Source of the DNA: an uncultured Acidobacteriota bacterium | GTDB lineage: Bacteria; Acidobacteriota; Thermoanaerobaculia; Multivoradales; UBA5704 | Length of the DNA: 64,000 nt | Assembly (NCBI GenBank): GCA_963718645.1 | Contig: OY970373.1 | Location: forward strand, 5,802,452-5,866,451 | Direction: 5' to 3' | Shown here: piece by piece, positions 9,546-47,838 of the stretch | Numbering within the stretch: the first letter of the stretch is position 1 | How the letters are laid out: each line of letters starts with the position of its first letter | The notes under the pieces: generated by a model | Seen by the model: only the letters and a program-made list of their open reading frames with translations | Databases searched by the model: none | Told to the model about the DNA's origin: nothing | Made by a program: the position numbers and the translations under genes

Positions 9546-10140
9546 GCCACTTCGCGAAGGCGTCCGGGTGGATGCTCCAGCCCAGGAAGCCGGCGAGCCC
9601 CATCACCACGCCGAAGGTGGCGAAGACGATCGACACCCCCACCAGCCACTTCTTGCGGGTCAGCGCGCTGACGCCCAGCAGGGCGATCGAGATACTGATC
9701 GCCGCCTCCGACATGTCGAACTGGTCGTCGTGCACGTTGAGGCGGTCGTACTCCGCCTGGGCCCCCTCGGCCTCGCGCTTGATGTCCGCCTTCTCCTTCT
9801 CATACTTCTTCACCGTCGCGTCGTAGGTGACGATCTCCTTGGCCACCAGGGCCGCCGCCTGCGGGGTCAGGCCCCCCTCCTGCTGGCGGAGCCGGAGCTG
9901 GTCGCCCACGCTCTCGGCGAGGTTCTGCTTCATCCCCTTCGCCTGGTAATACGACCACTGGTCGACCGCCTTGGCCTGCTCCTGGGACATCGCCTGCACG
10001 ATGTTGCCATCCTTGATGTTGCACAGCGCCATGACGGTGGCGAGGATCGCCACCAGCACGGCGATCAGGTTGTTCAGCCCGTCGTGCGATTTCTCGCCGC
10101 CTTCGACGATCTCGGAAATGGTCTCTTGAATGTCGCTCAT
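9538..10140 (-). CDS. Hypothetical membrane protein (DUF4337-like)
   Basis: 200 aa with two TM helices flanking a Lys/Glu-rich coiled segment. High GC3 coding signal on the minus strand. Confidence 0.55.
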   Translation of the reverse strand: MSDIQETISEIVEGGEKSHDGLNNLIAVLVAILATVMALCNIKDGNIVQAMSQEQAKAVDQWSYYQAKGMKQNLAESVGDQLRLRQQEGGLTPQAAALVAKEIVTYDATVKKYEKEKADIKREAEGAQAEYDRLNVHDDQFDMSEAAISISIALLGVSALTRKKWLVGVSIVFATFGVVMGLAGFLGWSIHPDAFAKWLS

Positions 10141-10238
10141 GGCGCAACGTTAGCCAGCTCCATGCCCCCCGTCAACGGGCAGAGGCCTGTCCCCGTCCTC
10201 CGGCCGGCGCGCACTAGCCTTGTAGGGAGGAGCGACGT

Positions 10239-11270
10239 TTGATCCTGATCCTCAGCCAGTCTTCATTGGAGCCCACGACCGAGGAGGTCATGGACTGGCT
10301 GTGGGCGCTCGGCGGCTCCTGCGTGCGCCTCAACGGCGACGACATCGAGGGTCGCTGCGCCCTCCGCTTCGAGATCGACGGCGCGGAGGCCTCCCTGGTC
10401 TTCACCTCCGACGACGGCGAGCTGCCGCTCTTGGAGGTCGGCGCCGTCTGGTTCCGCCGCTGGATCTTCGAGCGGCGCCACGAGTCCGTGGATCTGCTGG
10501 CGCGCCCGGCGGCGGACAACCACACGCTCCACTACGAGCTCCGGCGCCACCTCAACCTGGAGTCCCGGCGGCTCAGCGACTTCCTCTATTCGAGCCTCGC
10601 CGGCCGCCCCTGGCTCAGCCACCCCCGGCGCTCGAACCTCAACAAGCTCGACGTCCTCCAGCGCGCCGCCCGCGCCGGCCTCGCCACGCCGGCCACCCTG
10701 GTCACCACCGAGCGCGAGGCGCTCCGCCGCTTCTGCGTGGAGCGCGGGCCGGTGATCACCAAGCCGATCGGCGAGGTCGACGCCTTCCTCGACGGCGAGG
10801 TCGCGCACTACCTGTACACCACCGCTCTCGGCCTCGCGGAGATCGACGCGCTCCCCGCCCGCTTCGCCCCCTCGCTGTTTCAGGAGCAGGTGGAGAAGGC
10901 CTACGAGGTGCGGGTCTTCCACCTCGCCGGCGAGCTCCACGCGATGGCCATCTTCTCTCAGAACGACGACCAGACCCGGGTCGATTTCCGCCAGTACAAC
11001 CGGCAGCGGCCGAACCGCAACGTGCCCTACCGCCTCCCCGCGGAGACCGCCGCCGCCCTCCTCCGCCTGATGGCCGACCTCGACCTCGAGACCGGCTCGA
11101 TCGACCTGCTGGTGCGGCCGGACGGCGGCGAGGTCTTCCTGGAGGTCAATCCGGTCGGGCAGTTCGGAATGGTGTCGAAACCGTGCAACTACCCCCTGGA
11201 GCGGAAGGTCGCGGAGCTGCTCCTCCGCAAGGCCGATTCCGAGAAGAGCCATGATGAAAGACGACCCTGA
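10239..11270 (+). CDS. ATP-grasp ribosomal peptide maturase (grasp-with-spasm / RimK-like family)
   Basis: TTG start preceded by GGGAGG RBS. ATP-grasp fold motifs ('VITKPIGEV', 'EVRVFHLAGELHAMAI', 'GSIDLLVRPDGGEVFLEVNPVGQFG'). Sits in an operon with a SPASM protein and a small precursor gene. Confidence 0.8.
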   Translation: MILILSQSSLEPTTEEVMDWLWALGGSCVRLNGDDIEGRCALRFEIDGAEASLVFTSDDGELPLLEVGAVWFRRWIFERRHESVDLLARPAADNHTLHYELRRHLNLESRRLSDFLYSSLAGRPWLSHPRRSNLNKLDVLQRAARAGLATPATLVTTEREALRRFCVERGPVITKPIGEVDAFLDGEVAHYLYTTALGLAEIDALPARFAPSLFQEQVEKAYEVRVFHLAGELHAMAIFSQNDDQTRVDFRQYNRQRPNRNVPYRLPAETAAALLRLMADLDLETGSIDLLVRPDGGEVFLEVNPVGQFGMVSKPCNYPLERKVAELLLRKADSEKSHDERRP

Positions 11271-11463
11271 AGAGATCTTCGCGCGCCTCTCGCTCGAGGG
11301 GCAGGAGCTGGCGCCGGTGATCTACCGCCACCTGCACCCGCGGGCCAACCGCGCGACGGTCCTGCGGCTCGTCGAGTGCCGCCCCTACCGCGCCACGGGC
11401 TACATCTGTGGGAGCTTCCGCAAGCCGATCTCGAAGTGCTGCGGGCCCGATGAGGAACCTTAA
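11251..11463 (+). CDS. Small hypothetical protein (70 aa) inside the RiPP operon
   Basis: Very high GC3 codon bias consistent with real coding. Overlaps the end of the ATP-grasp gene and the start of the SPASM gene. Cys-rich C-terminus (CGSFRKPISKCCGP). Confidence 0.4.
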   Translation: MMKDDPEEIFARLSLEGQELAPVIYRHLHPRANRATVLRLVECRPYRATGYICGSFRKPISKCCGPDEEP

Positions 11464-12520
11464 GGCCGTCTTCTCCCTCTTCGCCTGCTGCCTGCCGGTG
11501 AAGGGAGCGCGCCGCAGCCTCGTCTGCGACCTCCAGCGGCAATCGTTCCAGTTCATCCCCAACGGCCTCTACGAGATCCTGACCGAGCACGCCGGCGAGA
11601 CGGTGGACCAGATCAAGGCGGCCTACGAGCACGAGTACGACACGGAGATCGACGAGTACTTCGCCTTCCTCCTGCACCACGAATTCGGCTTCTGGTGCGG
11701 CCACCCCCAGCGCTTCCCGCCGATCGACCTGACCTGGGAGGCGCCGGAGCGGATCACCAACGCCATCCTCGACCTCGACGAGCGGTCCGACCACGACATC
11801 CCGAAGATCCTCGCCGAGCTCGACGACCTCGGCTGCAAGGCGCTGGAGGTCCGCTGCTTCCACGCCACCCCACTATGCGAGCTGCGCGCACTCCTGGAGG
11901 CGGCCCTCCAGAGCCGGCTGCGCTCGATCGACCTGCTGGCCGGCTTCACCCCCGAGCTCACTCCTGAAGTGCTCGCGAGCCTGGTCGCCGAGCACCGCCG
12001 GGTGAGCAGCGTGGTGGTCCACTCGGCGCCGGCGAACCGGCGGCTCCCGCCGACCCAGACCGGCGTCACGATGGAATTTCGCGCCGAGGTGATCGGCTCT
12101 CCCGCCTGCTGCGGCAAGATCCACCCCGGGTACTTCGTGGTCGACCTGGAGACCTTCGCCGAGGGGCTGCGGCACAACACCTGCCTGAACCGCAAGATCT
12201 CGGTCGACGCCCGCGGGGAGATCCGCAACTGCCCGTCGCTGCCGCGGTCGTTCGGCAACGCGCGCCAGGTGTCGCTGCACAGCGCGCTGGCGCACCGCGA
12301 CTTCGCCGCCCTCTGGTCGATCAACAAGGACCAGATCGACATCTGCAAGGACTGCGAGTTCCGCTACGTCTGCACCGACTGCCGCGCTTATCTCCAGAGC
12401 CCGTCGGACCTCTATTCGAAGCCCTCCAAGTGCGGCTACGACCCCTATACCGCCGAGTGGCGTTCCTCGGCGGAACCGCCGGCCGCGCTGGCCGGCATCA
12501 CGAAAGGAGTTTTCCCATGA
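11450..12520 (+). CDS. SPASM-domain peptide maturase lacking the radical-SAM CxxxCxxC triad (grasp-with-spasm type)
   Basis: C-terminal SPASM cysteine clusters (CCGKIH...; CPSLPRSF...; CKDCEFRYVCTDCRAY; CGYDP). No canonical CxxxCxxC in the N-terminal barrel region. Stop overlaps the precursor start (ATGA). Start may be the annotated 11408 or the internal ATG at 11450. Confidence 0.7.
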   Translation: MRNLKAVFSLFACCLPVKGARRSLVCDLQRQSFQFIPNGLYEILTEHAGETVDQIKAAYEHEYDTEIDEYFAFLLHHEFGFWCGHPQRFPPIDLTWEAPERITNAILDLDERSDHDIPKILAELDDLGCKALEVRCFHATPLCELRALLEAALQSRLRSIDLLAGFTPELTPEVLASLVAEHRRVSSVVVHSAPANRRLPPTQTGVTMEFRAEVIGSPACCGKIHPGYFVVDLETFAEGLRHNTCLNRKISVDARGEIRNCPSLPRSFGNARQVSLHSALAHRDFAALWSINKDQIDICKDCEFRYVCTDCRAYLQSPSDLYSKPSKCGYDPYTAEWRSSAEPPAALAGITKGVFP

Positions 12521-32971: not shown

Positions 32972-34708
32972 ATGAAGCGCTCCCGATCGCCCCGCGAACT
33001 CTGGGCGTCCCTGCTGCCCACGGCCGGGGGCGTCCTGGCCCTCGCCGTCGCCCTGCGCGTGCCGGCGCTCGGCCGCGGCGAGCCGATGCCGGCCTGGCTG
33101 CTGGTGACCCTGGTGATCGCCGGCGCCGCGGCGGCCTGCCACCGGCCGGCGCCGGGGATCTCCACTCTCGGGCTCGGCACCATGATCCTCCCCGCCGCCT
33201 TCCAGCTCTCCGGCGCCGCGCCGGCGGCGGCGCTGGCGGCCGGGCTCCTGCTGGTCGTCGAGCTCTCCCTGCGCATCGTCCACCGCCTGGCCGCCCTGCA
33301 GCCCCAGGAGCGCCGCGGCTTCCTCCCCCGCTCGCTGGAGAGCGCCGGCCGCGCCGCCCTCGCCACCCTCGCCGCGGGGGGGGCCTGGGTGGGGCTCGGC
33401 GGCCGCTGGGGGTTGGTGCCGTCGCTGCTCGCCGCGGCGATCGCCTACCTCCTGGTCTGGATCGGCCTCGAAGCGGCCGACCGCAAGCTCCGGCGCCCCG
33501 AGGCGCCGCTCAAGGGGGTGCCGCTCCTCCTCCCCTTCGCGGTCGACGCCGGGGGGTGGATCGCCGGCGCCGGCATCCTCCTCGTGGGCAGCCGCGACCG
33601 CGCGGGCTGGCCGCTCGCCGCCTTCCTCGCCGCCTGCCTGGGCGGGCTGGCCGTCGAGACCACCCGCCACGGCCTGCTGCGGCAGAAGGCGCAGGACCGC
33701 GCCCGCAACCTCGAGCGTCTCCGCCGCGCCAGCCACCGGATGACCACGCCGCTGGAGGAGATGACCGCCACCGCCGACCGCCTCCACACCGAGTGCGCCA
33801 ACGTCCTCAAGGTCTTCTGGTTCCAGTTCGAGGCGCTGGCGCCGGGGAGCGAGCTGAAGAGCTGGTGGTGGGGCCCGCAGTCCGAGGCGCTGGAGGAGGG
33901 AGTGCCCGAGCCCGACCGCTACCCGCCGTTCCTGCCCGGATTCCATCGCCGCACCCAGTGGCAGATCCTCGAACGCCTCCTGCGCGCCCGCCCGGACGGC
34001 ACCGCGCTCGGCCGCATCCGCCTCTGGTGCGATCCCCGCCTCGTCGATCCGCGCGAGGTCGAGCTGCTCGACCGCCTGCTGCCGCAGATGACCGCCGCCG
34101 TCCAGCGCTGCCTGCTCGACCGCGAGGCCCGCGAGGACCCGCTCACCGGCGTCGCCATGCGGCGGGTCCTCGAACGGCGCCTGAACGAGGTGCACGGCCG
34201 CTGCTGCGAGGCCGGCGGCGCCATGGCGGTCCTGCTCTGCGACCTCGACCACTTCAAGCGGATCAACGACACCTTCGGCCATCCGGTCGGGGACGCCGCC
34301 CTGGTCGCCGTCGCGGGCGTGCTGAAGTCGATCCGCCGCGCCGACGACCTCTGCTGCCGCTACGGCGGCGAGGAGTTCGTCCTCCTGATGGAGGCCACCT
34401 CCGGGGAAGCCGGTCTGGCCGTCGCCGAGCGCCTCCGCGCCGCCGTCGAGGCCCTGGAGCTGGAGGTCGAAGGGCAGCGCATCCCCCTCACCCTGAGCGC
34501 CGGCGTCGCCTCCTTCCCCGAGCTCTACGTCAAGACCGCCGCCGAGCTGATCCTCTTCGCCGACGAGGCCCTCTACGAAGCCAAACGCCGCGGCCGCAAC
34601 CGCTGCCTGCTCGACATCGGCCAGGGGCGCTACATGGACGCCGCGGGGAACCTCCTGACCACCGACGACGCCGCCCCGGCGGCGGAGGCGCCGCGGATCT
34701 TCGCGTAG
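32972..34708 (+). CDS. Membrane-anchored diguanylate cyclase (GGDEF domain, GGEEF active site)
   Basis: Start at MKRSRSPREL. N-terminal multi-TM region. C-terminal GGDEF domain with RYGGEEF and the upstream inhibitory-site-like RxxD. Confidence 0.8.
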   Translation: MKRSRSPRELWASLLPTAGGVLALAVALRVPALGRGEPMPAWLLVTLVIAGAAAACHRPAPGISTLGLGTMILPAAFQLSGAAPAAALAAGLLLVVELSLRIVHRLAALQPQERRGFLPRSLESAGRAALATLAAGGAWVGLGGRWGLVPSLLAAAIAYLLVWIGLEAADRKLRRPEAPLKGVPLLLPFAVDAGGWIAGAGILLVGSRDRAGWPLAAFLAACLGGLAVETTRHGLLRQKAQDRARNLERLRRASHRMTTPLEEMTATADRLHTECANVLKVFWFQFEALAPGSELKSWWWGPQSEALEEGVPEPDRYPPFLPGFHRRTQWQILERLLRARPDGTALGRIRLWCDPRLVDPREVELLDRLLPQMTAAVQRCLLDREAREDPLTGVAMRRVLERRLNEVHGRCCEAGGAMAVLLCDLDHFKRINDTFGHPVGDAALVAVAGVLKSIRRADDLCCRYGGEEFVLLMEATSGEAGLAVAERLRAAVEALELEVEGQRIPLTLSAGVASFPELYVKTAAELILFADEALYEAKRRGRNRCLLDIGQGRYMDAAGNLLTTDDAAPAAEAPRIFA

Positions 34709-34734
34709 GACCTCCCCTGAAATGAGTTGAGCCC

Positions 34735-34870
34735 CGACGATCCAGCGGTGGACCTCCGGGCGAATGCGTTGGACCTCCGGGCGAATGCGTTGAACACCGG
34801 GAGGAATGTCCTCGACCTCGGGAAGCATCGCTTGGCCCTCCGGGGAAATGACTCGATCCCGCCGAGACAA
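34735..34870. repeat. Degenerate tandem 21-bp repeats (GGACCTCCGGGCGAATGCGTT x2 then diverged copies)
   Basis: Read directly after the diguanylate cyclase stop. Confidence 0.7.
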
Positions 34871-35007
34871 GCTCTCGACCTCGCCGGTCCAACGCAAAAC
34901 CCTCGCGGACTTTCCCAAACCCCAGAGGTTCAAGCTAAAACCCCGAGCGGTCCTTGGCAAAAGCCTCGGGGTTCAACAGAGACGCGTATCATTCCGATTT
35001 GCCATGC

Positions 35008-35037
35008 TTGACATCCGAAAAAGATGTGTTAATCTCC
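35008..35037 (+). promoter_or_regulatory. Sigma70-like promoter (TTGACA-17 bp-TAATCT) upstream of the 132-aa ORF
   Basis: ttgacatccgaaaaagatgtgttaatct, read directly. Rare near-consensus -35/-10 in a high-GC genome. Confidence 0.5.
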
Positions 35038-35204
35038 TTTGAGTCGATCCGAGGAAATCAAGAAAGATTCGCTTGGTGAACTGGAAAGGAGGCTTGAGGC
35101 GAAAAATCGAGAGCAGGCTTAACTTTTGTCGTCCATGCCAGGCAGAGGGTCCGGGATGACTCTCGGAAACCAAGAACCGCTCAACTCAAAACAGGAGAAA
35201 GACC

Positions 35205-35603
35205 ATGGCTGGAAAGGCCCTTGCAAAGTTCATTTCGGATTGGGAGCTGCTCGGCACTGCTCTCCAGGCTCATCTTACGGACATGCCCTTCCTCAGCGAG
35301 AAAGCCAAGGCGCTCGACGCGGTGATCTCGCAGGCGAAGGCGATGGACGCCAAGCAGCAGGAGCTGCGCGGCGCTGTGCAGGAAACCGTGCGCCAGCGGA
35401 AGGATCTGGTGAAGGAGGGCAAGACGATCCAGGGTTCCCTGGCCGCCTCGCTCCGAGCCAACCTCGGCTTCGAGAGCCAGATCTTGCTCGGCTTCGGCCT
35501 CAAGCCGCGCCGGCCGCGGAAGAAGAAGGCCACCAAGGATCCCGCCCCGCCGCCGGCGACATCGGCAGTCCAGAAAGAGGGTGAGGCAACCGCGGCGAAG
35601 TAA
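35205..35603 (+). CDS. Hypothetical protein (132 aa) within the inserted segment
   Basis: ATG with GGAGAAAG RBS. Coiled-coil-like Lys/Glu-rich protein with basic C-terminus. Confidence 0.45.
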   Translation: MAGKALAKFISDWELLGTALQAHLTDMPFLSEKAKALDAVISQAKAMDAKQQELRGAVQETVRQRKDLVKEGKTIQGSLAASLRANLGFESQILLGFGLKPRRPRKKKATKDPAPPPATSAVQKEGEATAAK

Positions 35604-35847
35604 ATGCGGTCAGCGCCGTGAAGGGGAGGGCCGCGGTTCGGCCCTCCTCTTTTTTTGACCGCGAACGCTCTACGGCGGCGGCTTGGACTCCTCCGCCGCC
35701 CCGGCGGCGGAGGCGTCGCGGATTTTTGCGTAGGCCTCTTGACGTTCCGCCGCAATCGAGGTATCTTTCGACGCGAAAAGGTTCCCGCTTGCCGAAAGAG
35801 CCCATGGGGCTCTTCTCCCCAGGAGATAGGCGAGCGGGTCTCGTTTT

Positions 35848-36010
35848 TTAGTAGTACTCCTTTTTCCCTCCGCGGAAAACGTCGAACTCGGTCAGCACCA
35901 CGCTCTCGATCTTGGAGAAGGAGCGGAGATCTCCGTCCTTCCATTTCCTGTTGATGGCCCAGCAGCAGTAGTCCGCCACTTGGAGCATGGGGTGGGACGT
36001 CGAGCTGTGC
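35848..36010 (-). pseudogene. C-terminal fragment of a DUF3800-like protein (remnant)
   Basis: Fragment translates ...MHSSTSHPMLQVADYCCWAINRKWKDGDLRSF...; the LQxAD motif resembles the C-terminal motif of the island protein at 41282-42082. No N-terminal part present. Confidence 0.35.
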
Positions 36011-36029
36011 ATGAAGATTCCATAGGGCA

Positions 36030-36181
36030 GTCGCCGACGAGGCCCTCTACGAAGCCAAACGCCGCGGCCGCAACCGCTGCCTGCTCGACATCGGCCAGGG
36101 GCGCTACATGGACGCCGCGGGGAACCTCCTGACCACCGACGACGCCGCCCCGGCGGCGGAGGCGCCGCGGATCTTCGCGTA
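36030..36181 (+). repeat. Direct duplicate of the last ~150 bp of the diguanylate cyclase gene (34561-34708); a third partial ~40-bp copy lies at 35690-35730
   Basis: Near-identical sequence gacgaggccctctacgaagccaaacgccgcggccgcaaccgctgcctgctcgacatcggccagg...gcgccgcggatcttcgcgtag at both places. Confidence 0.85.
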
Positions 36182-36434
36182 GGGGGAAGGCGTTCCAATA
36201 TGCCTGTGCCCGATGGGGCGATCCGCGCTTCGAAGCCTCACCCTCGATCCCTCTCCACAAGTGGAGAGGGAGGCCGTTCTGCTTCAGGTTTCAGTGGGAC
36301 ACCACCCTTGGATCGCGGGCCCCCCCTCTCCCGGCTGGCGGGAGGGCGGTGGGAGAGGGGCCGGGGGTGAGGTTTCGGGGTGGGGGGCGCATTGCGCAGG
36401 CCGTCTCGAACTTCACCGCCGGCCCTGTACGCGC

Positions 36435-39505: not shown

Positions 39506-39582
39506 GCGCCCTTAGCTCAGCTGGATAGAGCGGCAGCCTCCGAAGCTGTAGGTCAGAGGTTCGAATCCTCTAGGGCGCACCA
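39506..39582 (+). tRNA. tRNA-Arg (CCG); integration target of the downstream island
   Basis: GCGCCCT acceptor, anticodon loop CTCCGAA, GGTTCGAATCC, CCA. Its 3' 46 nt are repeated at 45794-45839. Confidence 0.9.
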
Positions 39583-39867
39583 TCTAAGCCCAATAAAATC
39601 AGATAGTTACGAGCGAGCCGCTGAAGTGGCTCCAGAGCCCCTTTTTGCTCGTGGACCACTGGTGGACCACTGGTGCGCTCGCTTGGGTCCACGCCGAGCC
39701 GGCCGGCTCACCCCTCCCTCGCGCCACTTCTCCCAGAAACACGACCGGCGCCAATGCGGCGCCGGGTTCAAACCTCCGTCTCCCTTCCTGGGAGCGGACC
39801 AAACCAGACGGCCCGGCGGGTGTGCGACCACGCCGCCGGACCTGACCCGAGCACAGGAGAACACCCC

Positions 39868-40191
39868 ATGCCCGAGCTGCCGGAAGTCTACCGCACGCCC
39901 CCGGACCTCATCCGCTACACGGAAGCCACCCGCCGCGACCTCTATGACCGGCTGGTAGCGATCCAATTCACCGCCCCGGACCCCGCGACCGTCGAGCATC
40001 CGGAGGACGTCTTCACCCCCTACGACCCGGATACGGCCGGGTTGGTCATCTTCCACGTCCTGGGGCGATGGTTTGCCACTTGGACCGACCTCGACGCCGC
40101 CCCCGAGCTGCCGGAGGATCGCCGCCGCGAGCTGGTACGCATCGAAGCCGATCCCACCACCTCAAACGGCATCATGCTCTATGAGGTCTGA
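39868..40191 (+). CDS. Hypothetical protein (island)
   Basis: ORF with internal ATG at 39868 (MPELPEVYRTPPDL...). No recognised domain. Confidence 0.4.
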   Translation: MPELPEVYRTPPDLIRYTEATRRDLYDRLVAIQFTAPDPATVEHPEDVFTPYDPDTAGLVIFHVLGRWFATWTDLDAAPELPEDRRRELVRIEADPTTSNGIMLYEV

Positions 40192-40194
40192 GCC

Positions 40195-40560
40195 ATGAGG
40201 GAACGGAAAGAGGCGGTCACCCTCAAGGCTACAACCTGGGAACTGGAGAGCTGGCGCGATGCCGCCCGCCGGGTCAAGCGGGACGTCCCCCGCTTCCTCA
40301 TCTTCGCGGGCGACGCCACGGCCCGCTACCTGCGGGAGTTGGACCGCCAGCGCCGGCCGGACTTCGTCATGATCCGGGAGACGGAGAAGCGGAAGCTTGG
40401 CGCCTTGCTCAAAGCGGCGCGGGAGGCCGTCGAGCACCTTCCCAAGGTCCACCACAGCCCGATCTACGGCCCCCGGCCAATCCAGCGAAACCTACGGGAC
40501 GCCGTGGAGGAAATCGACCGCTTCCTAATTGGACGCGGGGAGGAGTATCCGTGCGACTGA
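40195..40560 (+). CDS. Hypothetical protein (island)
   Basis: 121-aa ORF immediately after the previous one. No recognised domain. Confidence 0.4.
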   Translation: MRERKEAVTLKATTWELESWRDAARRVKRDVPRFLIFAGDATARYLRELDRQRRPDFVMIRETEKRKLGALLKAAREAVEHLPKVHHSPIYGPRPIQRNLRDAVEEIDRFLIGRGEEYPCD

Positions 40561-40725
40561 AGACGGCCCGCGCGAGTGCTCCAATGATCCCCACCCCTCC
40601 CGCGTAGTACCTCCGGGCCGGTTCCGACAGCGGGGCCGGCCCCCTCTTTCGACTCACAAGCAGGATCGGGGGGCGGTTCCTTTGTACGGGGCCGCCCCTT
40701 CTAGTTTTCCCAGGGAGAGCAAGCG

Positions 40726-40983
40726 GTGAACAGGAAAAGCGTAAAGGCATGGTGTGACGAAACCGAGCCGCCCGCCACGTGGAAGGGACTATCCACCGCG
40801 TACAGAGCGGGAGCGAAAGCGAGGGCGGCGGGTAAGGACAGAACCGAGTGCCGCTATGGGAGAGAGGATCTTGCTCGGGCTTGGCTAAGTGGGTTTGATG
40901 GAATGGACGGGTTTCTCTCCGGCGGTGGAATTCTGCTTTGCGATCTTTGCGGCCAAGAGCTTAAACCCACCCCTCCCGCTTAG
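40726..40983 (+). CDS. Hypothetical protein (island), flanked by ~50-bp direct repeats
   Basis: 85-aa ORF. Repeats ccacccctcccgc(g/t)tag(t/c)acct(c/t)ccgggccggttccgacagcggggccggcc at 40585-40640 and 40963-41020. Confidence 0.35.
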   Translation: MNRKSVKAWCDETEPPATWKGLSTAYRAGAKARAAGKDRTECRYGREDLARAWLSGFDGMDGFLSGGGILLCDLCGQELKPTPPA

Positions 40984-41281
40984 CACCTTCCGGGCCGGTT
41001 CCGACAGCGGGGCCGGCCTTCACTTTGGGGCCGGTTCAACCTTGCTTCCCTACAGCCGTCCCCCTGTTCAAAAAAATCTGAGTCTCCGTGCGCTCTCGCG
41101 AGATGCGATGCTACAATCCCATGGGGAATTCGGAAGCCTATGAGCGACTGTGAGCCCCGGTGCAATCCTGCCAACGCGGACACGGGAGCCGTACAGGCTT
41201 TGTATCTAAATGGATACTTGATCTAGCTTACGGAAGGAAAGGAGAAGATATGCCGAAGGAGAAGATATCCAACAATTTAAG

Positions 41282-42082
41282 TTGTCCTCGGAGAGAAGGG
41301 CTATTGTCGTGATAGCGGCGTACTTTGACGAAAGCGAGCGCGAGGATGGCACTTTTTGTGTCGCGGCTTACTGCTACTTCCCAGGGAAAGCAGAAAAGCT
41401 CGATAAACGGTGGCGTAAGATAATGGGTGGAAAAATTTTTCATGCTACCGATATGAATAATCGAGTAGGCGATTTTGAGGGCCTTGACCCGAGCATCAGT
41501 GACCAGATGTATCGCAAACTGATAGACGCTATCTTGAAGCACTTTGAATTTGGAGTTGTTCTTTCGCTTAACCCTCGTGACGTAACTGTAGAATGGCCAG
41601 GGCTTGACGGGTTCAAAACAGCTTATGCTCTTTGTTGTACTCTTGTTGTATCGACGATATCATCTCACCTTGACAGGTTGGGCATCAAATCTCGTGTGGC
41701 TTATATATTTGAGGCCGGACATAGACATCATAGTGAGGTGGAAAGATTCATGAATTCGGTGGCGCTCAGCTCTAATCGCTATCACTATCTCTCTCATTCT
41801 TTCGAGCCTAAAGACAGCGAGACACTATTACAGACCGCAGACCTTCTTGCCTGGGAGTGGGGTAAGTACATATCCGAAGTTAGTCAAAAAATGTCTATGA
41901 GACGGTCGTTGGAAGAGTTGTTATACAGAGATCCTCATAAGCAGATGGTGGGCAATCTCTCCACGAAAGATCTTGAAGAAGATATTGCAAAATTCAGAAC
42001 GATGGAGGAAATGGTGCGCAGTGCGCCGGATGCGTCTGCTTTCCTGAAGAAATTTAATCAGCGGCCAGCCCGGGAGCCCTAA
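41282..42082 (+). CDS. DUF3800-like protein (island cargo, AT-richer)
   Basis: N-terminal IAAYFDESERE (DUF3800 'DESG'-type motif) and C-terminal LQTADLLAWEW. Visibly lower GC than surroundings. Confidence 0.5.
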   Translation: MSSERRAIVVIAAYFDESEREDGTFCVAAYCYFPGKAEKLDKRWRKIMGGKIFHATDMNNRVGDFEGLDPSISDQMYRKLIDAILKHFEFGVVLSLNPRDVTVEWPGLDGFKTAYALCCTLVVSTISSHLDRLGIKSRVAYIFEAGHRHHSEVERFMNSVALSSNRYHYLSHSFEPKDSETLLQTADLLAWEWGKYISEVSQKMSMRRSLEELLYRDPHKQMVGNLSTKDLEEDIAKFRTMEEMVRSAPDASAFLKKFNQRPAREP

Positions 42083-42094
42083 AAGGCTGCCCCT

Positions 42095-42547
42095 CTAAGC
42101 GGTCAATAACTGGCCAACAGGACCCAACATCTCTAGTAGTATCTCCTCCTGGTCCGGTGTCAGTCTCTTGCCCGATCCCTCAAAGAGAATATATAGCTTC
42201 AGGGGGACAGAGAGGGAGTCTACCTCTATGTTATTGTCTTGAGTCTCAATAGGTCCGCCGTCCTTTCCAAATAACTCCACTGCTTTTGTTGGATGAAACC
42301 CTGTACGGTCTAAGACTATCTGAGATGCCTTCACTATAGAAGTTAGATCGTTGCTCTGAAGTGCCTTATGTAGTCCAGCCAATGCAGGCTCTACCAATTC
42401 GGCGAGACGTTCCTTTGCAGACTTCTTTACCTGTGGCGCTCTTCCACCGTGAGTCGCACAAACGGTAGAGCCGTTGATCGCCCACCGTTCGCACTGGCGG
42501 GAGCCGTCTGAGACGTGGGCTGTGCAGCGCTGTCTACGGGCTATCAT
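42095..42547 (-). CDS. Hypothetical protein with N-terminal Cys/His cluster (island cargo)
   Basis: RCTAHVSDGSRQCERWAINGSTVCATHGG zinc-finger-like N-terminus. 150 aa. AT-richer. Confidence 0.45.
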   Translation of the reverse strand: MIARRQRCTAHVSDGSRQCERWAINGSTVCATHGGRAPQVKKSAKERLAELVEPALAGLHKALQSNDLTSIVKASQIVLDRTGFHPTKAVELFGKDGGPIETQDNNIEVDSLSVPLKLYILFEGSGKRLTPDQEEILLEMLGPVGQLLTA

Positions 42548-42766
42548 GGGTCACGCCTTTCATGGGTGGCTGTTACCTCTGGACGGGCTGGACAGGTTGG
42601 CGTGCCGGGCACTCCTATTTATACTTATACTATTCTATTACTGGCCCACTATGTGAAGTCCGTGAAGTCTCCGGCTTCATCGTCCGGACTTCATGATGTC
42701 CCCCTTCTGAATTACGAGACTTCCCGCGTTAGACTTCATGAAGCGGCTTTGGTGAAGTGGAGAGCT

Positions 42767-43465
42767 TCACCCGACGTGCCGCCCCTGCTTCACGTCTCGG
42801 AGATGGGCTAATCCGGCTTTCCCCATACAGTGCCGGAAGCGCACCCTGCTTCTGAAGTGGTCCACGTACTCTCTGCACTCTATCCTGGTATTCTCTGCGA
42901 GGCAATCTTCATCCGCCCATGCGGCAAAACACGCTATAGTTGCCACCACCATGCGATCCTCGCCCAGAGTCTCAAGAACGGTAGTGAGTGACTTTCTCGG
43001 TTCCTCTCCGTAATAGAACGTGTGGTGCTTGAAACTGCCCAACCGCTTAAAGCCAAATTCCCTCAAGAAGTCTCCTAGATCCTTGTCCTCATCCGTCCCA
43101 AGATCGCCCAATTCCTGGAACTCACTTCTTAGTGCGGCATAGTCTTTAATCTCGGGCCAGTCGGCTACCTTCTTAATGCCGATGTCGAGAGAGCAGTGCC
43201 AAATGGCTTTTAAGGCTACTGCTCGCCCGTTTAGAGTAATCTCGGGCTTTATCTTTTCGACGATATGGTGTCCTAGAGGAGGCATGCACTTGATTGATAG
43301 ACTCTGCTCTCCTGAATTCCTGTCGAGCAGGAAGTTATAGTAATCTCTGTTTAGGGTCTCGACGATTCCCTTCTCGGCGTCTGGTTCATAATCCTCAAAA
43401 TCGACCGCAGATCCTTTGACGAATAGGGGGCGGGATTCTTGGCTTTCCCTCTGGGGTCTTGCCAT
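42767..43465 (-). CDS. Hypothetical protein (island cargo)
   Basis: ORF with probable start at MARPQRESQ. No recognised domain. Confidence 0.45.
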   Translation of the reverse strand: MARPQRESQESRPLFVKGSAVDFEDYEPDAEKGIVETLNRDYYNFLLDRNSGEQSLSIKCMPPLGHHIVEKIKPEITLNGRAVALKAIWHCSLDIGIKKVADWPEIKDYAALRSEFQELGDLGTDEDKDLGDFLREFGFKRLGSFKHHTFYYGEEPRKSLTTVLETLGEDRMVVATIACFAAWADEDCLAENTRIECREYVDHFRSRVRFRHCMGKAGLAHLRDVKQGRHVG

Positions 43466-43478
43466 TGTCGTTTCCTCT

Positions 43479-43712
43479 TCACTCAAGACACCCTTCACTC
43501 TCACGGTAATCTGGTCCACCACGGGGAGCCGCAGCGATGAACGCGGCGAGATCTTCCTCTTTCCAGCCACTCACACCAGGGCCGAGAATGACTCGGGGCG
43601 CCAGCCGGCCGGAGGACTCCCAGCGGTAAAGAGTCGCCCGGGAAATCCCCAGAAGACGGGCGGCTTTAGCGGGGCGAATGATCGGGGAGACGATCGGGGA
43701 TACAGACATCAT
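43479..43712 (-). CDS. AlpA-family phage transcriptional regulator / excisionase-like HTH protein
   Basis: LLGISRATLYRWESSGRLAP is the AlpA/Xis-type HTH. Confidence 0.7.
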   Translation of the reverse strand: MMSVSPIVSPIIRPAKAARLLGISRATLYRWESSGRLAPRVILGPGVSGWKEEDLAAFIAAAPRGGPDYRESEGCLE

Positions 43713-43826
43713 TTCGGTGCCTCCTTTGTTGCGCCGTGACACAGAGCGGAATGCGATGCTCTGCGATACCGCTCCATTGGACCACGCCGCCCTAGGGGCG
43801 CCGCAAGTTGAAAACTCTGAGAGTTT

Positions 43827-44366
43827 CTAACGTTTGACGGGGCGCGCCAGCTCGTACCAGATACTCGCGACGCGCTCGCTTGAGAGAGAGTATTCGTCCG
43901 CGACCTGATTAAAAACATCCAACATGGCAGGCTTTGGGTCACCTTCGATCAGCACAGCGACGCTTTCTGCAATGAACATGTCGCGGGAGTCAATGACGGC
44001 CTGCGCCGTGATTGAAGGGCCGCCGCCACTTCCTTTCAGGCCGAGAGCGGCGACAATCGCATTTCCCCCCTTCGGACGCTCTACGCACAGAGCCTTGGCC
44101 CATTGGTCGAACAGCTCAAGTACCCATCCGGGAATGTCGAGCTTCATACGGCGCGCTATGCGGTAGGCAGTAAACGCGTGGATTGGATTTCGGTTCCGCG
44201 CGTAGAGTACCCGAGAACGCTCTATGAAAAACTTCACTGACTTGGCCTTGGACCGTTGCCAAGCCTCCAATTGCCGCTGCCTTTCCGCGTCCAGTGGTTT
44301 GCTCTCTTCCATCATTGGCTCCGCGTGAACGTCACCTTTTCGCCCCGGCCGCGCCGAAGATTTCAT
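43827..44366 (-). CDS. Hypothetical phage/island protein
   Basis: 179-aa ORF whose start overlaps the integrase stop by 4 nt. No recognised domain. Confidence 0.4.
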   Translation of the reverse strand: MKSSARPGRKGDVHAEPMMEESKPLDAERQRQLEAWQRSKAKSVKFFIERSRVLYARNRNPIHAFTAYRIARRMKLDIPGWVLELFDQWAKALCVERPKGGNAIVAALGLKGSGGGPSITAQAVIDSRDMFIAESVAVLIEGDPKPAMLDVFNQVADEYSLSSERVASIWYELARPVKR

Positions 44367-45598
44367 CTCACCCGCTCCGCAATCCTCACCACGTTGGACC
44401 GCTCCTCCCCCGCGAGGACTCTTTCCACAAGATCCCCGAGCAAAATCACGGCTTGCCGTTTTTCCGCGTCATAGCCGGCGCGGTTGTAGGTGCGGGAGAT
44501 GCGGCCGGCGGCATGGTTCAAGAGCTGGTCTATGGTGTCAGGGCGGACCCCGGAGCGGCCGAGCCACGTTGCGGCCGTCCTCCGGAGGTCGTGCGGGGTG
44601 AAGTGGTCCAAGCCGGACCACGCCCGGAGCCGCGCCGAGCTGTGCGACAACCACGTGAGCCGCTTGCCGTCCGCGCGGGAGGCGAACACCCATTCCGTCG
44701 AGCCGGTGAGGGGGCGGAGAGCTTCAACCACCGCGAGAGCTTGCGGCGATAGCGGCACGCGGTGCGCGCGGTTGGTTTTCGTCAGCTCCGCCGGAAGGTT
44801 CCACCACCACCCCCGGGAGTCGCGCTCAAGGTCCCGCCAGCGCATAGAGAGCACCTCCCCGGGCCGCTGGGCGGTCAACAGGACCAGACGCCACGCGGCG
44901 GAGACGGCCGGCTGTAAGCGGTCGAAGAAGGGCCATAGGGCGCGGAGCTCATCCTCTGAGAGCACCCTTTCTCGCGGCTTCTCTGCATAGAGCCGCTTGA
45001 GGCCATGGACGGGATTGGTCTCGACGCGCTCTCTCTCCATTCCGAAGCTGAAAACCCGGGATATCAGGGTCCGGGTCCGATTGGCGCAGACGCCACCCCG
45101 ATCCAATGCGATCCTTTCGAGCAACTCGCGGACATCAGTCCGGCGGATCTCTGCGGCCGGCCGGGAGCCCCACACCGGGAGCACTTCAACCCGTAGTTTC
45201 CGCTCGTCTTCCTTCCAGGCGCGGAGCCGCTTGTTTCGCTTCGCGTGCTCTTCCAGGTAGAAGGCCGAGAGGGCTTCAAACGTCTCGCTTCCGGCTTTCT
45301 TGCGGGCGGCACGGTCGGCCTTCCGCTCGGCCATCGGGTCGCGGTCGTGGACCTTGACGCCTCCAAGGAGTTCCCGGGCCTTGTCCCGCGCCTTTTTCAG
45401 ACTGAGGGCCGGGTACTCGGCGAAGGTGATTCGACGCCGGCCGCCACTCGGGCCGTAGCGCAGAAACCAGAATTTGCGTCCACTCGGGAGGACACGGAGC
45501 CCGAGCCCGGGGACCTCGCCGTCCGCAAGCTCGAAGCGGGTCCCTTTGCTCGCGGTGCGGATCTGAAGATCGGAGAGGGGGGCAGTTGCACGCCTCAT
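44363..45598 (-). CDS. Tyrosine-type site-specific integrase (P4-like)
   Basis: N-terminal DUF4102-like arm-binding region (LSDLQIRTAKSKGTRFELADG...GLGLRVLPSGRKFWFLRY). Catalytic R...HxxR...Y (HDLRRTAATWL...LNHAAGRISRTYNRAGY). Start chosen at MRRATAPLS. Confidence 0.85.
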   Translation of the reverse strand: MRRATAPLSDLQIRTASKGTRFELADGEVPGLGLRVLPSGRKFWFLRYGPSGGRRRITFAEYPALSLKKARDKARELLGGVKVHDRDPMAERKADRAARKKAGSETFEALSAFYLEEHAKRNKRLRAWKEDERKLRVEVLPVWGSRPAAEIRRTDVRELLERIALDRGGVCANRTRTLISRVFSFGMERERVETNPVHGLKRLYAEKPRERVLSEDELRALWPFFDRLQPAVSAAWRLVLLTAQRPGEVLSMRWRDLERDSRGWWWNLPAELTKTNRAHRVPLSPQALAVVEALRPLTGSTEWVFASRADGKRLTWLSHSSARLRAWSGLDHFTPHDLRRTAATWLGRSGVRPDTIDQLLNHAAGRISRTYNRAGYDAEKRQAVILLGDLVERVLAGEERSNVVRIAERVR

Positions 45599-46289
45599 GG
45601 TCGGGTGCCTCCGGTTTGACGGGTGGACCTCAAGGCCCGCGCGGAATAGCCGTGGACCACTGGTGGACCACTGGTGGACGCGCTTGCATGGGTTGGCATG
45701 ATGCCGTATGATACAGGCGATGCCGCTAAATGTCCATGCTGTCAGTGACTTAGGGGGACGTGGCGAGACACCATGGAACCCCCCTGGCACAGACTCCGAA
45801 GCTGTAGGTCAGAGGTTCGAATCCTCTAGGGCGCACCATTTAAGTCACCTAAAATCAATGGTTTGCGGCGGGGGCTGACTCGGCTCCAGAGTGTCCTTGT
45901 GCAAAAGGACCCCTGGAGGACCGCTTCCGGCTGGCATCAGGATCCAACGGCTCCAGCGGGAGTGGTCACCCCCACTGGAGCCTGGTCGAGCCGAGGAGAG
46001 CTAGTTCAGCGGGCAGGTAGTAAGCCCGCCGGGGCACACCGTAGCGCTTCCCGCGCCTTCCACGGATCCCAATTCGTTCGCTTCGAGAAGACGGAGAGTT
46101 TCCTTGTTGAGCTTGAGCGACTCCCGGGTCTGGTGTTTGCCCTTCAGCAGGTTCTTTCTCATCGGCTTCTCCTTGTTGGTTAGCGCCCGCTGCGTTGAAG
46201 CGGGTCTAGGACCCGGACAAAATATATGACCAAGGGGTATGAGGCAAGCTCAGTTACAATGAAGACCCGTCCGGAAAGGGAGTGACTTT

Positions 46290-46589
46290 ATGCCCCGCTT
46301 GGCGATCGAAGAAGAGCAACTGGCGCGGTTCTGCCGGAAGCAGCACATCCGTCGGCTGTCCTTGTTCGGTTCCACGCTCGCGGGCACGGAACGGCCGGAC
46401 AGCGACGTCGATCTGCTGGTGGAGTTCGAGCCCGGCTGTGAGCCCGGCCTGCTCGGGTTGGCCTCGATGGAGGCCGAGCTGGCCGCGATGCTGGGCGGGA
46501 AAAGGGTCGACCTGCGCACCCCACAGGATCTCAGCCGGTATTTCCGCGATCAGGTCCTGGGTGGCGCAGAGGTCCAATATGCGGGATGA
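46290..46589 (+). CDS. Minimal nucleotidyltransferase (MntA-type antitoxin of HepT/MNT module)
   Basis: [24 protein letters not shown] is the GS...DxD NTase motif. Confidence 0.7.
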
Positions 46590-46920
46590 GGATCGCATCC
46601 GTATCCTCCACATGATCGATGCCGCCGAAATCGTGGCGCAGTTCATGGAGGGACGGAGCCGTGACGACCTCGATCGAGACCGTATGCTCCTCTTTGCCCT
46701 GGTGCATGCGATCGAAGTCCTCGGCGAGGCGGCGAGCAAAGTCTCAATCGACGGCCGGGCCGCCGCGCCGCAGATACCGTGGGGGACCATCGTCTCGATG
46801 CGCAACCGGCTTATCCATGGCTACTTCGACATCGACACGACGATTGTGTGGAAGACGGCCACTGTGGAAGTCCCCGCCTTGCTTCCCTTTCTGCGAACGC
46901 TGGCCGATGTGGCGACCTGA
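46579..46920 (+). CDS. HepT-like HEPN toxin (DUF86)
   Basis: Rx4HxY HEPN motif RNRLIHGY. Overlaps MNT gene by 11 nt. Confidence 0.7.
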
Positions 46921-47076: not shown

Positions 47077-47838
47077 ATGCCTAAAGTTTGGATCGGTTCC
47101 GCGTTCAAGATGCCGGAGCGGCTATATCGCTACAGACCCCTTGCAGACGAGAAGCACTGGGGTCACCTTGAGCAGATCTTGCTGGATTCCACAATGTATG
47201 GGGCGCCGCCTGGGGTTCTGCAGCAGGAAGATCCCGAAGACTGCCGCATTGCTGTGAATACCCGCTGCACGTTCGACGAGTTCAAGCAGAGCCGCTATGG
47301 TCAAGAGCCGACGCAGAAATACCTGGATTTGTCTGAGCCTGAAAGCGATTTCTACCTCCGCGAACATTACGAGGATCTAATGAAGCCAGATTTCGCTCCT
47401 GCCGTGGTTGATTCGCTTCGGCGAAGCATAGACCAGTACGGCGTGATCTGTTTCTCCGTAGATGGAGACATCCCAACACAATGGCAGAGCTATGCCTCCC
47501 AAGGGCGAGGAGTGTGTCTGGAGTTCGACCCGCTCAAGGACTCGGACTTCTTCATAAAGGTCAAGCCTGTCGACTATGTCGATGTGCTCGAACCGGCACA
47601 TGTCTTTACTGACACGAGTGAAGCGCAGGTCCGCAAGCGTCTGTATACCAAACTCGTCAAATATGAGAGTGAGGCGGAGTTTCGTGCCCTCTTCGTTGGT
47701 GGAGCTGATCAACAGATACCCTTCAGGCCCGAGGCGCTGATAAGGGTCAAGCCGGGCTCGGAGATGGATGAGGCGAATCGCGGCCGCTTCGAAGCGATCC
47801 TCCGGAAGCGGTGGGCGAAGACAGGGCTTGAAGTCTAG
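47077..47838 (+). CDS. DUF2971 family protein
   Basis: N-terminal LYRYRPL...W and EDPED motifs typical of DUF2971. Sits in an AT-richer stretch. Confidence 0.5.
   Translation: MPKVWIGSAFKMPERLYRYRPLADEKHWGHLEQILLDSTMYGAPPGVLQQEDPEDCRIAVNTRCTFDEFKQSRYGQEPTQKYLDLSEPESDFYLREHYEDLMKPDFAPAVVDSLRRSIDQYGVICFSVDGDIPTQWQSYASQGRGVCLEFDPLKDSDFFIKVKPVDYVDVLEPAHVFTDTSEAQVRKRLYTKLVKYESEAEFRALFVGGADQQIPFRPEALIRVKPGSEMDEANRGRFEAILRKRWAKTGLEV

Follow-up and report, generated by a model that had tools for sequence, protein, structure and literature searches.

The window, a 64-kb stretch of contig OY970373.1 from an uncultured Acidobacteriota bacterium (Thermoanaerobaculia), carries a 6.26-kb tyrosine-integrase island at ~39,583-45,857, inserted in a tRNA-Arg(CCG) gene. 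Its middle, at 41.1-43.5 kb, contains three genes that are the main subject here: a DUF3800 gene and, facing it, genes for a protein of 150 amino acids (aa) and for a 232-aa protein, p232. From the integrase side, the island reads int, a gene that overlaps int through an ATGA (p179), alpA, p232, the 150-aa gene, which is terS-like, a variable slot, an rmf-like gene, g121 and g172 (Table 1). The tyrosine integrase, p179, the AlpA/HTH_17 protein, p232 and the 150-aa protein are encoded on the - strand; g172, g121 and the Rmf/CrpP-like and DUF3800 proteins are encoded on the + strand. An initial annotation, made from the sequence alone, had described an AT-richer, foreign three-gene cargo core next to AlpA, composed of a 266-aa DUF3800-like protein and two ORFans of 150 and 233 aa. 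Open reading frame (ORF) calls confirm the three frames in the orientation given and the sizes of the first two; the third is 232 aa long (P0022). The composition is equally borne out: G+C is 0.44-0.53 over positions 41250-43500, against 0.65-0.72 in the flanks, and this DNA lies inside an integrase/AlpA island.

The window locus is called W below, and the loci of relatives, metagenome and viral contigs included, L001-L023. Window proteins were mapped onto relatives' loci and metagenome contigs (L001-L019) by tblastn and ORF calls, with all-versus-all clustering; the locus scan was limited to one genome per species. The 150-aa protein has homologues at 14 genome loci, downstream of int and alpA, all of them in metagenome-assembled genomes of Thermoanaerobaculia or other Acidobacteriota. 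The order that recurs is int, sometimes a gene overlapping or abutting it, alpA, a middle gene, the 150-aa gene, cargo, an Rmf-like gene, g121/g172-like genes and a tRNA, spanning ~5-8 kb at tRNA-Arg, Thr, Gly, Glu or Lys genes. This backbone is conserved in ~15 Thermoanaerobaculia/Acidobacteriota loci. The integrase is 79-94% identical in L002, L007, L008, L009 and L012; at the equivalent position, the Rmf-like protein is 82-88% identical in L008, L011 and L014, and g172 has homologues in L007 (63% identity), L006 and L018. The place of p179 is taken by sequence-unrelated genes in L002 (210 aa, 4-nt overlap) and L010.

In W, L002-L005 and L013, a p232-like protein is the product of the middle gene; at the other loci this gene encodes a DUF3631, DUF3987, DUF5906/VapE, D5_N/Pox_D5 or AAA_25/DnaB-like protein, those with DUF3987 or DUF5906 being found in L006, L007, L011 and L016. 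The cargo consists of one to four low-G+C genes, usually on the opposite strand. Its slot holds DUF3800 in W, L001 and L020, SIR2_2 in L002, PIN_12 in L005/L013, FRG in L011, a HEPN/MtlR-like protein in L017, AAA_33 in L010 and proteins of no family in the rest; a PADLOC search with 23 cargo proteins of the relatives returned SIR2, PDC-S15 (E 2.6e-41) and PDC-M32A, one each.

Judged by this distribution, the 150-aa gene and p232 are backbone and only DUF3800 is swappable cargo, because the first two recur at fixed positions while the slot content varies. The swappable-cargo reading of DUF3800 is supported by a comparison of W with L001, whose DUF3800 coding sequences are 90% identical at the nucleotide level, with homology confined to the coding sequence. 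The 150-aa proteins encoded next to them have a protein identity of only 73%, and their middle genes are not related. Of the three-gene cargo first proposed, DUF3800 keeps its accessory status, in a slot shared with defence-type genes, while the other two genes are conserved backbone. The term ORFan does not suit the 150-aa protein, which has more than 126 homologues and belongs to a small-terminase family; p232 is indeed rare, yet conserved in the backbone.

The 150-aa protein is likely a small-terminase (TerS) homologue. The profile of its family matches two Pseudomonas phage small terminases in the PDB, 6w7t (E 1.6e-4) and 7joq (E 2.1e-4), with residues 28-105 aligned onto 50-129, including KAAQxILDRxGF…ELT. 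These TerS proteins, of PaP3 and NV1, are similar in length to the window protein (152-157 aa against 150); they differ at the N-terminus, which in the window protein is a Cys3-His zinc ribbon with an HGG motif. Identity to them is low, and ring formation and DNA binding are putative for the window protein. The N-terminal Cys/His cluster noticed initially is well conserved, with C8, C19, C30, H33 and G34 invariant in 22 homologues, and resembles the HGGxSTG domain of NCBIfam HGG_STG (E 8.6e-4, below the cut-off). Among PHROGs, the window protein matches phrog_3678 (E 5.8e-10), whose function is unassigned there, and TerS entries weakly only (phrog 10899, E 0.0039; phrog 2538, E 0.017). Its homologue in viral contig L023 (positions 9998-10381), 52% identical and with the Cys3-His pattern kept, matches TerS phrog_2538 with an E of 7.4e-5. 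This homologue lies directly upstream of, and overlaps, ORF 10293-11660, a large terminase (TerL) of 455 aa (Terminase_6N 8.5e-23, Terminase_6C 8.3e-11, TerL PHROGs down to 1.4e-33). Rather than to a defence or accessory function, the homology of the 150-aa protein leads to an ordinary phage one, DNA packaging, and for this gene that is the kind of outcome which the initial annotation had named as contrary to its reading.

An AlphaFold2 (AF2) monomer model of the 150-aa protein (mean pLDDT 78, pTM 0.38) comprises a zinc ribbon and a helical hairpin. Its GenBank actinophage homologues are annotated as hypothetical. In L002-L004 and L021, the TerS position is held by a 130-150-aa protein with a helix-turn-helix (HTH) N-terminus of the HTH_Tnp_1_2 family; two of these positional equivalents, L002_150 and L021_130, match TerS PHROGs. 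Because L002_150 shares its last ~45 residues with HGG-type members of six other loci, the comparison suggests a DNA-binding head swapped on a shared C-terminal tail.

Clustering of this C-terminal tail as a link of satellites to helpers was uninformative. In L014, whose cargo slot has four genes, the TerS homologue at 10001-10338 is probably a frameshifted pseudogene, since it is split into two frames (90% identity over residues 1-61, 61% over 58-114). The exact 150-aa product of the window is absent among database matches (best 93% identity), where the DUF3800 and p232 products of the same contig are present; its gene may be uncalled in the public annotation.

The second backbone protein, p232, has no match in Pfam, PHROGs, NCBIfam, PADLOC or, by profile, in PDB sequences, and Foldseek finds no significant neighbour of its model in the PDB. 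It is rare, with 10 close homologues and 8 matches among 1.84 billion cluster representatives, and has no relatives in viral contigs. Its gene always comes directly after alpA. An apparent homology to the DUF3631 protein of L001 was rejected as a clustering artefact of over-extended ORFs (direct BLASTP E 0.067).

The gap that separates p232 from terS holds, at 42655-42737, five copies of GAAGTC/GACTTC, and degenerate ones close by. Four of the five take the form of the heptamer TGAAGTC. This heptamer occurs 13 times in the window, where whole-window shuffles average 4.9, and four of the occurrences lie within 85 nt; the cluster is non-random. Counted in equivalent search windows of 400-500 nt, six GAAGTC copies are present in every p232-bearing locus (W, L002-L005, L013) and 0-1 in loci with other middle genes, and the count of six holds whether the next gene is an HGG-type or an HTH-type terS. 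A block of ~130 nt is nearly invariant across W, L002, L003 and L005, where the p232 proteins are only 67-71% identical. Since the six-copy count tracks p232 and the block is nearly invariant, p232 and the GAAGTC/AT-rich block are, on comparative grounds, one module. The place of p232 as cargo in the initial annotation does not agree with its position in a replication-gene slot or with its co-inheritance with a conserved iteron block. Satellites and plasmids usually have origins built of iterons beside an AT-rich stretch. Because the slot is the replication slot of the relatives and the iterons have this design, our leading inference is that p232 and the block would form an initiator-origin pair. 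The alternative is a regulator-operator pair controlling terS; a promoter-like site at 42657-42629 (- strand) overlaps the iteron block.

The remaining gene of the three is the only one in the variable slot. Its product matches Pfam DUF3800 (PF12686) marginally, with 21.8 bits for a gathering threshold of 21 (E 3.4e-4, profile positions 2-144 of 149), and several of its homologues have precomputed PF12686 matches. The two motifs described for the family, DE and QxxD (PMC7736814), are both present, at the N-terminus as D16/E17 (YFDESE) and at the C-terminus as Q184-T-A-D187 (LQTADLLAWE). Across 21 aligned homologues, residues D16, E17, S18, E144 and D187 do not vary, which upholds the DUF3800-like motifs read initially from the letters. 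An alternative start, GTG at 41309, is preceded by GGAGAGAAGGG; the public gene call P0001 uses GTG, for a product of 257 aa.

DUF3800 proteins have a predicted RNase H(2)-like fold (PMC7736814, PMC10910872). They are fused or adjacent to retron type VII reverse transcriptases (PMC7736814), are accessory in CRISPR V-A2 (Cas12a2/a3) and VI-F loci (PMC10910872, PMC12669027, bioRxiv 10.64898/2026.01.16.699850) and accompany eleven unexplained RNA motifs (PMC5737381); a functional test is reported in none of these five sources. With the retron VII and CRISPR-associated members the window protein has in common the Pfam family, the DE and QxxD motifs and a defence-type context. In contrast to them it is stand-alone, and it keeps the Q of QxxD that the retron-associated clade lacks. 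Family searches of the island ORFs found no reverse transcriptase or Cas domain, and the island has no CRISPR array, msr/msd or TPR domain. Rfam 15, applied to the window with the gathering threshold and to the island with E values up to 10, finds tRNAs only, and so no DUF3800-associated RNA (DUF3800-I to XI, drum, skipping-rope) and no retron RNA; a search of 20 relatives' loci gave no Rfam DUF3800 motif either. The 271 nt upstream of DUF3800 fold no better than shuffles (z 0.32). The protein has no PHROG match, and a search of PDB sequences with the DUF3800 profile gave nothing relevant.

Close homologues of the DUF3800 protein (54-87% identity) adjoin a terS-like gene in four of six contexts (W, L001, L020 and L021); in L022, one lies between housekeeping genes. 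A further 70, more distant metagenome relatives show no link to the island backbone. There are no homologues in GenBank phages, and those on plasmids are distant Bradyrhizobium matches only (~24-26% identity). Intact catalytic residues, together with a slot occupied in relatives by SIR2, PIN, HEPN, FRG and PDC-type genes, are what suggests a stand-alone, single-gene anti-phage or helper-interference nuclease, a role drawn from context that we hold to be slightly more doubtful than probable.

In L001, a 103-aa ORF (44-355) runs 4 nt into the start of DUF3800, an arrangement suggestive of translational coupling. This ORF has no counterpart in the window; instead, a 39-nt insertion and a duplicated AAGGAGAAGATAT are found just upstream of DUF3800, and the L001-type start codon is lost (AGG).

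The island as a whole resembles phage-inducible chromosomal islands (PICIs) and is, at ~6.3 kb, smaller than typical ones. Five components form the PICI core: integrase, regulator (alpA, for example), primase-replicase, capsid-morphogenesis gene and terS, the last typically followed by accessory genes (PMC10085698). Integrase, AlpA-type regulator and TerS homologue occur here in PICI order and strand, with the accessory slot after terS, and in relatives a primase-replicase sits between alpA and terS. The criterion for a PICI combines an integrase, a regulator (alpA, merR or stl) and terS; the island has all three, and no tail, holin, portal or TerL gene match. It differs from PICIs in the TerS, with a zinc ribbon in place of an HTH, and in the host, an Acidobacteriota (Thermoanaerobaculia), more than 99.9% of detected PICIs being in Proteobacteria or Firmicutes (PMC10085698).

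The PICMIs of Vibrionaceae (phage-inducible chromosomal minimalist islands), ~6 kb long, consist of int, iolg with an ATGA overlap, alpA, the small unknown gene up1, a DUF3987/DUF5906 prim and a distal hotspot of defence genes; two markers are mandatory for them, an integration site beside fis and a primase of the DUF3987 or DUF5906 type (PMC10803314). The window island shares with them a size of ~6 kb, the succession of int, ATGA-overlapping gene, alpA and small gene, and a distal accessory hotspot that includes single genes without known function; relatives carry the DUF3987/DUF5906-type primase. It differs in its place in a tRNA and not by fis, in having no primase in the window copy, in its phylum and in its terS homologue, a gene outside the PICMI core set. 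Formally, the window island is a member of neither the PICIs nor the PICMIs, because it has no primase or capsid-morphogenesis gene, lies in a tRNA and not at fis, and comes from a different phylum. A literature search found no paper linking phage satellites to Acidobacteriota.

In P4-like satellites, defence hotspots are fixed slots between backbone genes, filled with unrelated, low-G+C and often single-gene cargo that belongs partly to known defence families. The island family has such a fixed slot with swapped low-G+C cargo, partly of known defence families; its backbone has no psu, delta, sid or alpha, and most of its cargo has no known family. The P4-like hotspots are cited in PMC10803314.

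Altogether, we favour, with some confidence, a PICI/PICMI-like minimal phage-satellite island in an Acidobacteriota, in which a stand-alone DUF3800 nuclease of predicted RNase H fold is the candidate one-gene defence cargo. Upon infection by a helper phage, AlpA and Int would excise the island. p232 would act on its iterons and thereby start replication or else activate terS, and the TerS homologue would pair with the large terminase of the helper, so that island DNA is packaged. The DUF3800 protein would cut the nucleic acid of competing phages, to the benefit of both host and island, and would thus be one-gene defence cargo like that in the accessory slots of other satellites.

Several points weigh against this interpretation. 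The Pfam score of DUF3800 is barely above threshold, and its putative RNase H fold is taken from PMC7736814 and PMC10910872. At E up to 1, PADLOC matches no model to the DUF3800 protein or to the other two proteins, for which this check had been proposed. Three of the 23 cargo proteins of relatives match PADLOC, and most have no known family. The TerS-TerL adjacency is seen in one viral contig, L023, the GenBank actinophage homologues lying 1.7-2.3 kb upstream of TerL or at the genome end. Foldseek of the 150-aa model finds no significant match and no terminase in the PDB, and in BFVD only uncharacterised Microbacterium phage (actinophage) proteins. The AF2 model of p232, all helical, is of low confidence (mean pLDDT 61.8). 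With no recognisable primase, helicase or capsid-morphogenesis gene, the window island has three of the five PICI core components; a capsid-morphogenesis gene is also missing in many accepted PICIs (Type B; PMC10085698). Finally, a helper phage, induction, excision and packaging are all putative.

Some of these points suit an ordinary small integrative genomic or defence island, independent of any helper, whose 150-aa protein would be a DNA-binding regulator sharing a helical hairpin with small terminases. This is the alternative that survives best, though we consider it unlikely. It would account for the modest TerS similarity (E ~1e-4), for a 150-aa model without a PDB terminase match, for actinophage homologues that are hypothetical and not adjacent to TerL, and for an island with no capsid-redirection gene and, in the window, no primase. 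It fits poorly with the L023 viral homologue in the canonical place directly upstream of, and overlapping, TerL, with the replacement of the 150-aa protein by an HTH-type protein matching TerS PHROGs at the equivalent position, and with an order of int, alpA, primase, terS and accessory genes that fits the PICI definition (PMC10085698).

It is less probable still that DUF3800 serves the element itself, by processing RNA-DNA hybrids or primers in a primase-less replication, or by sabotaging the replication or packaging of the helper. An RNase H-type fold (PMC7736814, PMC10910872), the lack of primase and helicase in the window element and the terS-like neighbour in four of six contexts are in line with such a role, whereas L001 and L021 carry a DUF3631 or DUF3987 replication protein in addition to DUF3800, unrelated genes fill the slot in other relatives, and the 70 distant metagenome relatives have no backbone link.

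The original proposal, a joint defence or accessory module made up of DUF3800, the 150-aa Cys/His protein and the 232-aa protein, has the lower G+C of all three ORFs (0.47, 0.52 and 0.53) and the adjacency of DUF3800 to the 150-aa gene in W, L001 and L020 in its favour, but is largely refuted and very improbable because the three genes are distributed independently: the 150-aa gene, a TerS homologue, has unrelated genes in the DUF3800 position at 14 loci, p232 is found together with SIR2 or PIN cargo where DUF3800 is absent, loci L001, L020, L021 and L022 have DUF3800 but lack p232, and there is no PADLOC match.

The favoured reading, a satellite island with DUF3800 as defence cargo, may extend to an undescribed family of 5-8 kb satellites in Acidobacteriota (Thermoanaerobaculia), with a zinc-ribbon TerS, a p232 initiator and iteron origin in one sub-lineage, and a post-terS reservoir of unknown one- or two-gene anti-phage systems that includes a partner-free DUF3800 nuclease; we propose this wider picture as a tentative one, more probably wrong than right in its entirety. 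Nearly all documented phage satellites, and their defence hotspots, are from Proteobacteria and Firmicutes. If the satellite family is a true one, the PICI/PICMI design reaches a major soil phylum without genetic tools, and int, alpA and terS become a compact scaffold for mining Acidobacteriota defence genes; ~85% of the examined cargo proteins have no known family. The widespread DUF3800 family, of RNase H fold, is seen beside retrons, Cas12a2/a3 and eleven RNA motifs that lack an explanation; a member that stands alone in a slot of defence type makes a simple candidate with which to begin functional tests. The pairing of p232 with its iterons offers a protein-DNA module of no known type that is clean and testable. 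The architecture is familiar; what lends itself to experiment is its host phylum, the pairing of p232 with iterons and the placing of a DUF3800 gene in a defence slot.

Table 1. Features of the integrase island, in positions of the window.
Feature	Position	Strand	Remarks
tRNA-Arg(CCG)	39506-39582	+	ARAGORN; Rfam tRNA 70.9 bits
Left attachment (att) direct-repeat copy	39534-39601	+	68 nt, 91% identical to right copy
Tandem 11-nt GGACCACTGGT repeats, left end	39650-39685		two copies; 68 nt past tRNA
g172	39673-40191	+	backbone gene; no family match in Pfam, PADLOC, PHROGs, NCBIfam
g121	40195-40560	+	backbone gene; no significant family match; weak homologue in L021 element
Rmf/CrpP-like small protein	40726-40983	+	far border of cargo slot
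DUF3800 gene	41282-42082	+	266 aa; sole gene of variable slot 40984-42094
Likely TerS homologue	42095-42547	-	150 aa; backbone gene; N-terminal CxnCxnCxxH zinc ribbon (HGG motif) replacing usual HTH
Iteron-like cluster, then AT-rich stretch (~42615-42650)	42615-42770		in 219-nt gap between p232 and terS
p232	42767-43465	-	232 aa, identical to P0022; slot of primase/helicase genes in relatives
AlpA-type HTH_17 excisionase/regulator	43479-43712	-	77 aa in public gene call; ORF reaches 43742
p179	43827-44366	-	overlaps int stop by 4 nt (ATGA); reads GTG AGA TGA AAT
Tyrosine integrase	44363-45598	-	411 aa from M aligned with relatives; Arm-DNA-bind_3, Phage_int_M, Phage_integrase (Pfam)
Second GGACCACTGGT set	45651-45686		just upstream of int; direct orientation to left set (36 nt, 92% identical)
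Right att repeat, partial copy of tRNA-Arg 3' half	45790-45857	+	repeat spacing 6256 nt

At the ends of the island, the tRNA search gives a weak match over 45745-45835 that overlaps the right att repeat. The GGACCACTGGT repeats found at both ends are possible arm-type sites of the integrase, a candidate assignment from sequence; the enzyme carries an Arm-DNA-bind_3 domain (Pfam). The AlpA-type protein scores 29.9 bits with Pfam HTH_17 and 21 bits with Phage_AlpA, and matches PHROG 66 (excisionase); its match to PADLOC mad1 is through the HTH only. p179 has no family match in Pfam, PADLOC, PHROGs or NCBIfam. The Rmf/CrpP-like protein is just under the cut-off of NCBIfam Rmf_CrpP_fam (27.7 against 28) and matches PRK14563 with an E of 6.8e-8. 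A ~60-nt repeat with a G+C-rich hairpin is present 3' of both g121 and the Rmf-like gene (40590-40649 and 40966-41026, 86-92% identical); it has the look of a terminator or boundary element that was duplicated at the cargo slot's edge.

Several relatives (L001, L005/L013 and L021) are found between a flavoprotein/HtrA/peptidase M16 block and other housekeeping genes. An integrase is missing from the available sequence of L001 and L005/L013, and no tRNA was found in L001, L005, L013 or L021. These loci may represent a different integration site or integrase-less remnants.

Elsewhere in the window, the second, decayed DUF3800 fragment reported initially is real and lies at the edge of another small insertion: residues 61-85 of ORF 35848-36198 (- strand) align with the final 25 positions of the DUF3800 model (24.6 bits, E 4.6e-5). 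This insert of 1321 nt (34710-36030), at the 3' end of a GGDEF (diguanylate cyclase) gene, lies between two perfect copies of a direct repeat of 153 nt (34557-34709 and 36031-36183), the right one of which the DUF3800 C-terminal remnant abuts. A third copy of the repeat is reduced to 41 nt (35694-35734, 93% identical). The whole of 34557-36183 looks like the decayed remains of one or two elements targeting the 3' end of the GGDEF gene.

Past the right att repeat, positions 45874-45925 resemble 39620-39671, past the tRNA, with 71% identity. A nucleotidyltransferase gene follows at 46290-46589 (NTP_transf_2/Polbeta), overlapped by ORF 46282-46920, with which it probably forms a pair as the antitoxin-like half. 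A low-G+C, DUF2971-like gene is found at 47077-47838. The segment 45858-47900 may represent what is left of an earlier tandem insertion at the tRNA of the island.

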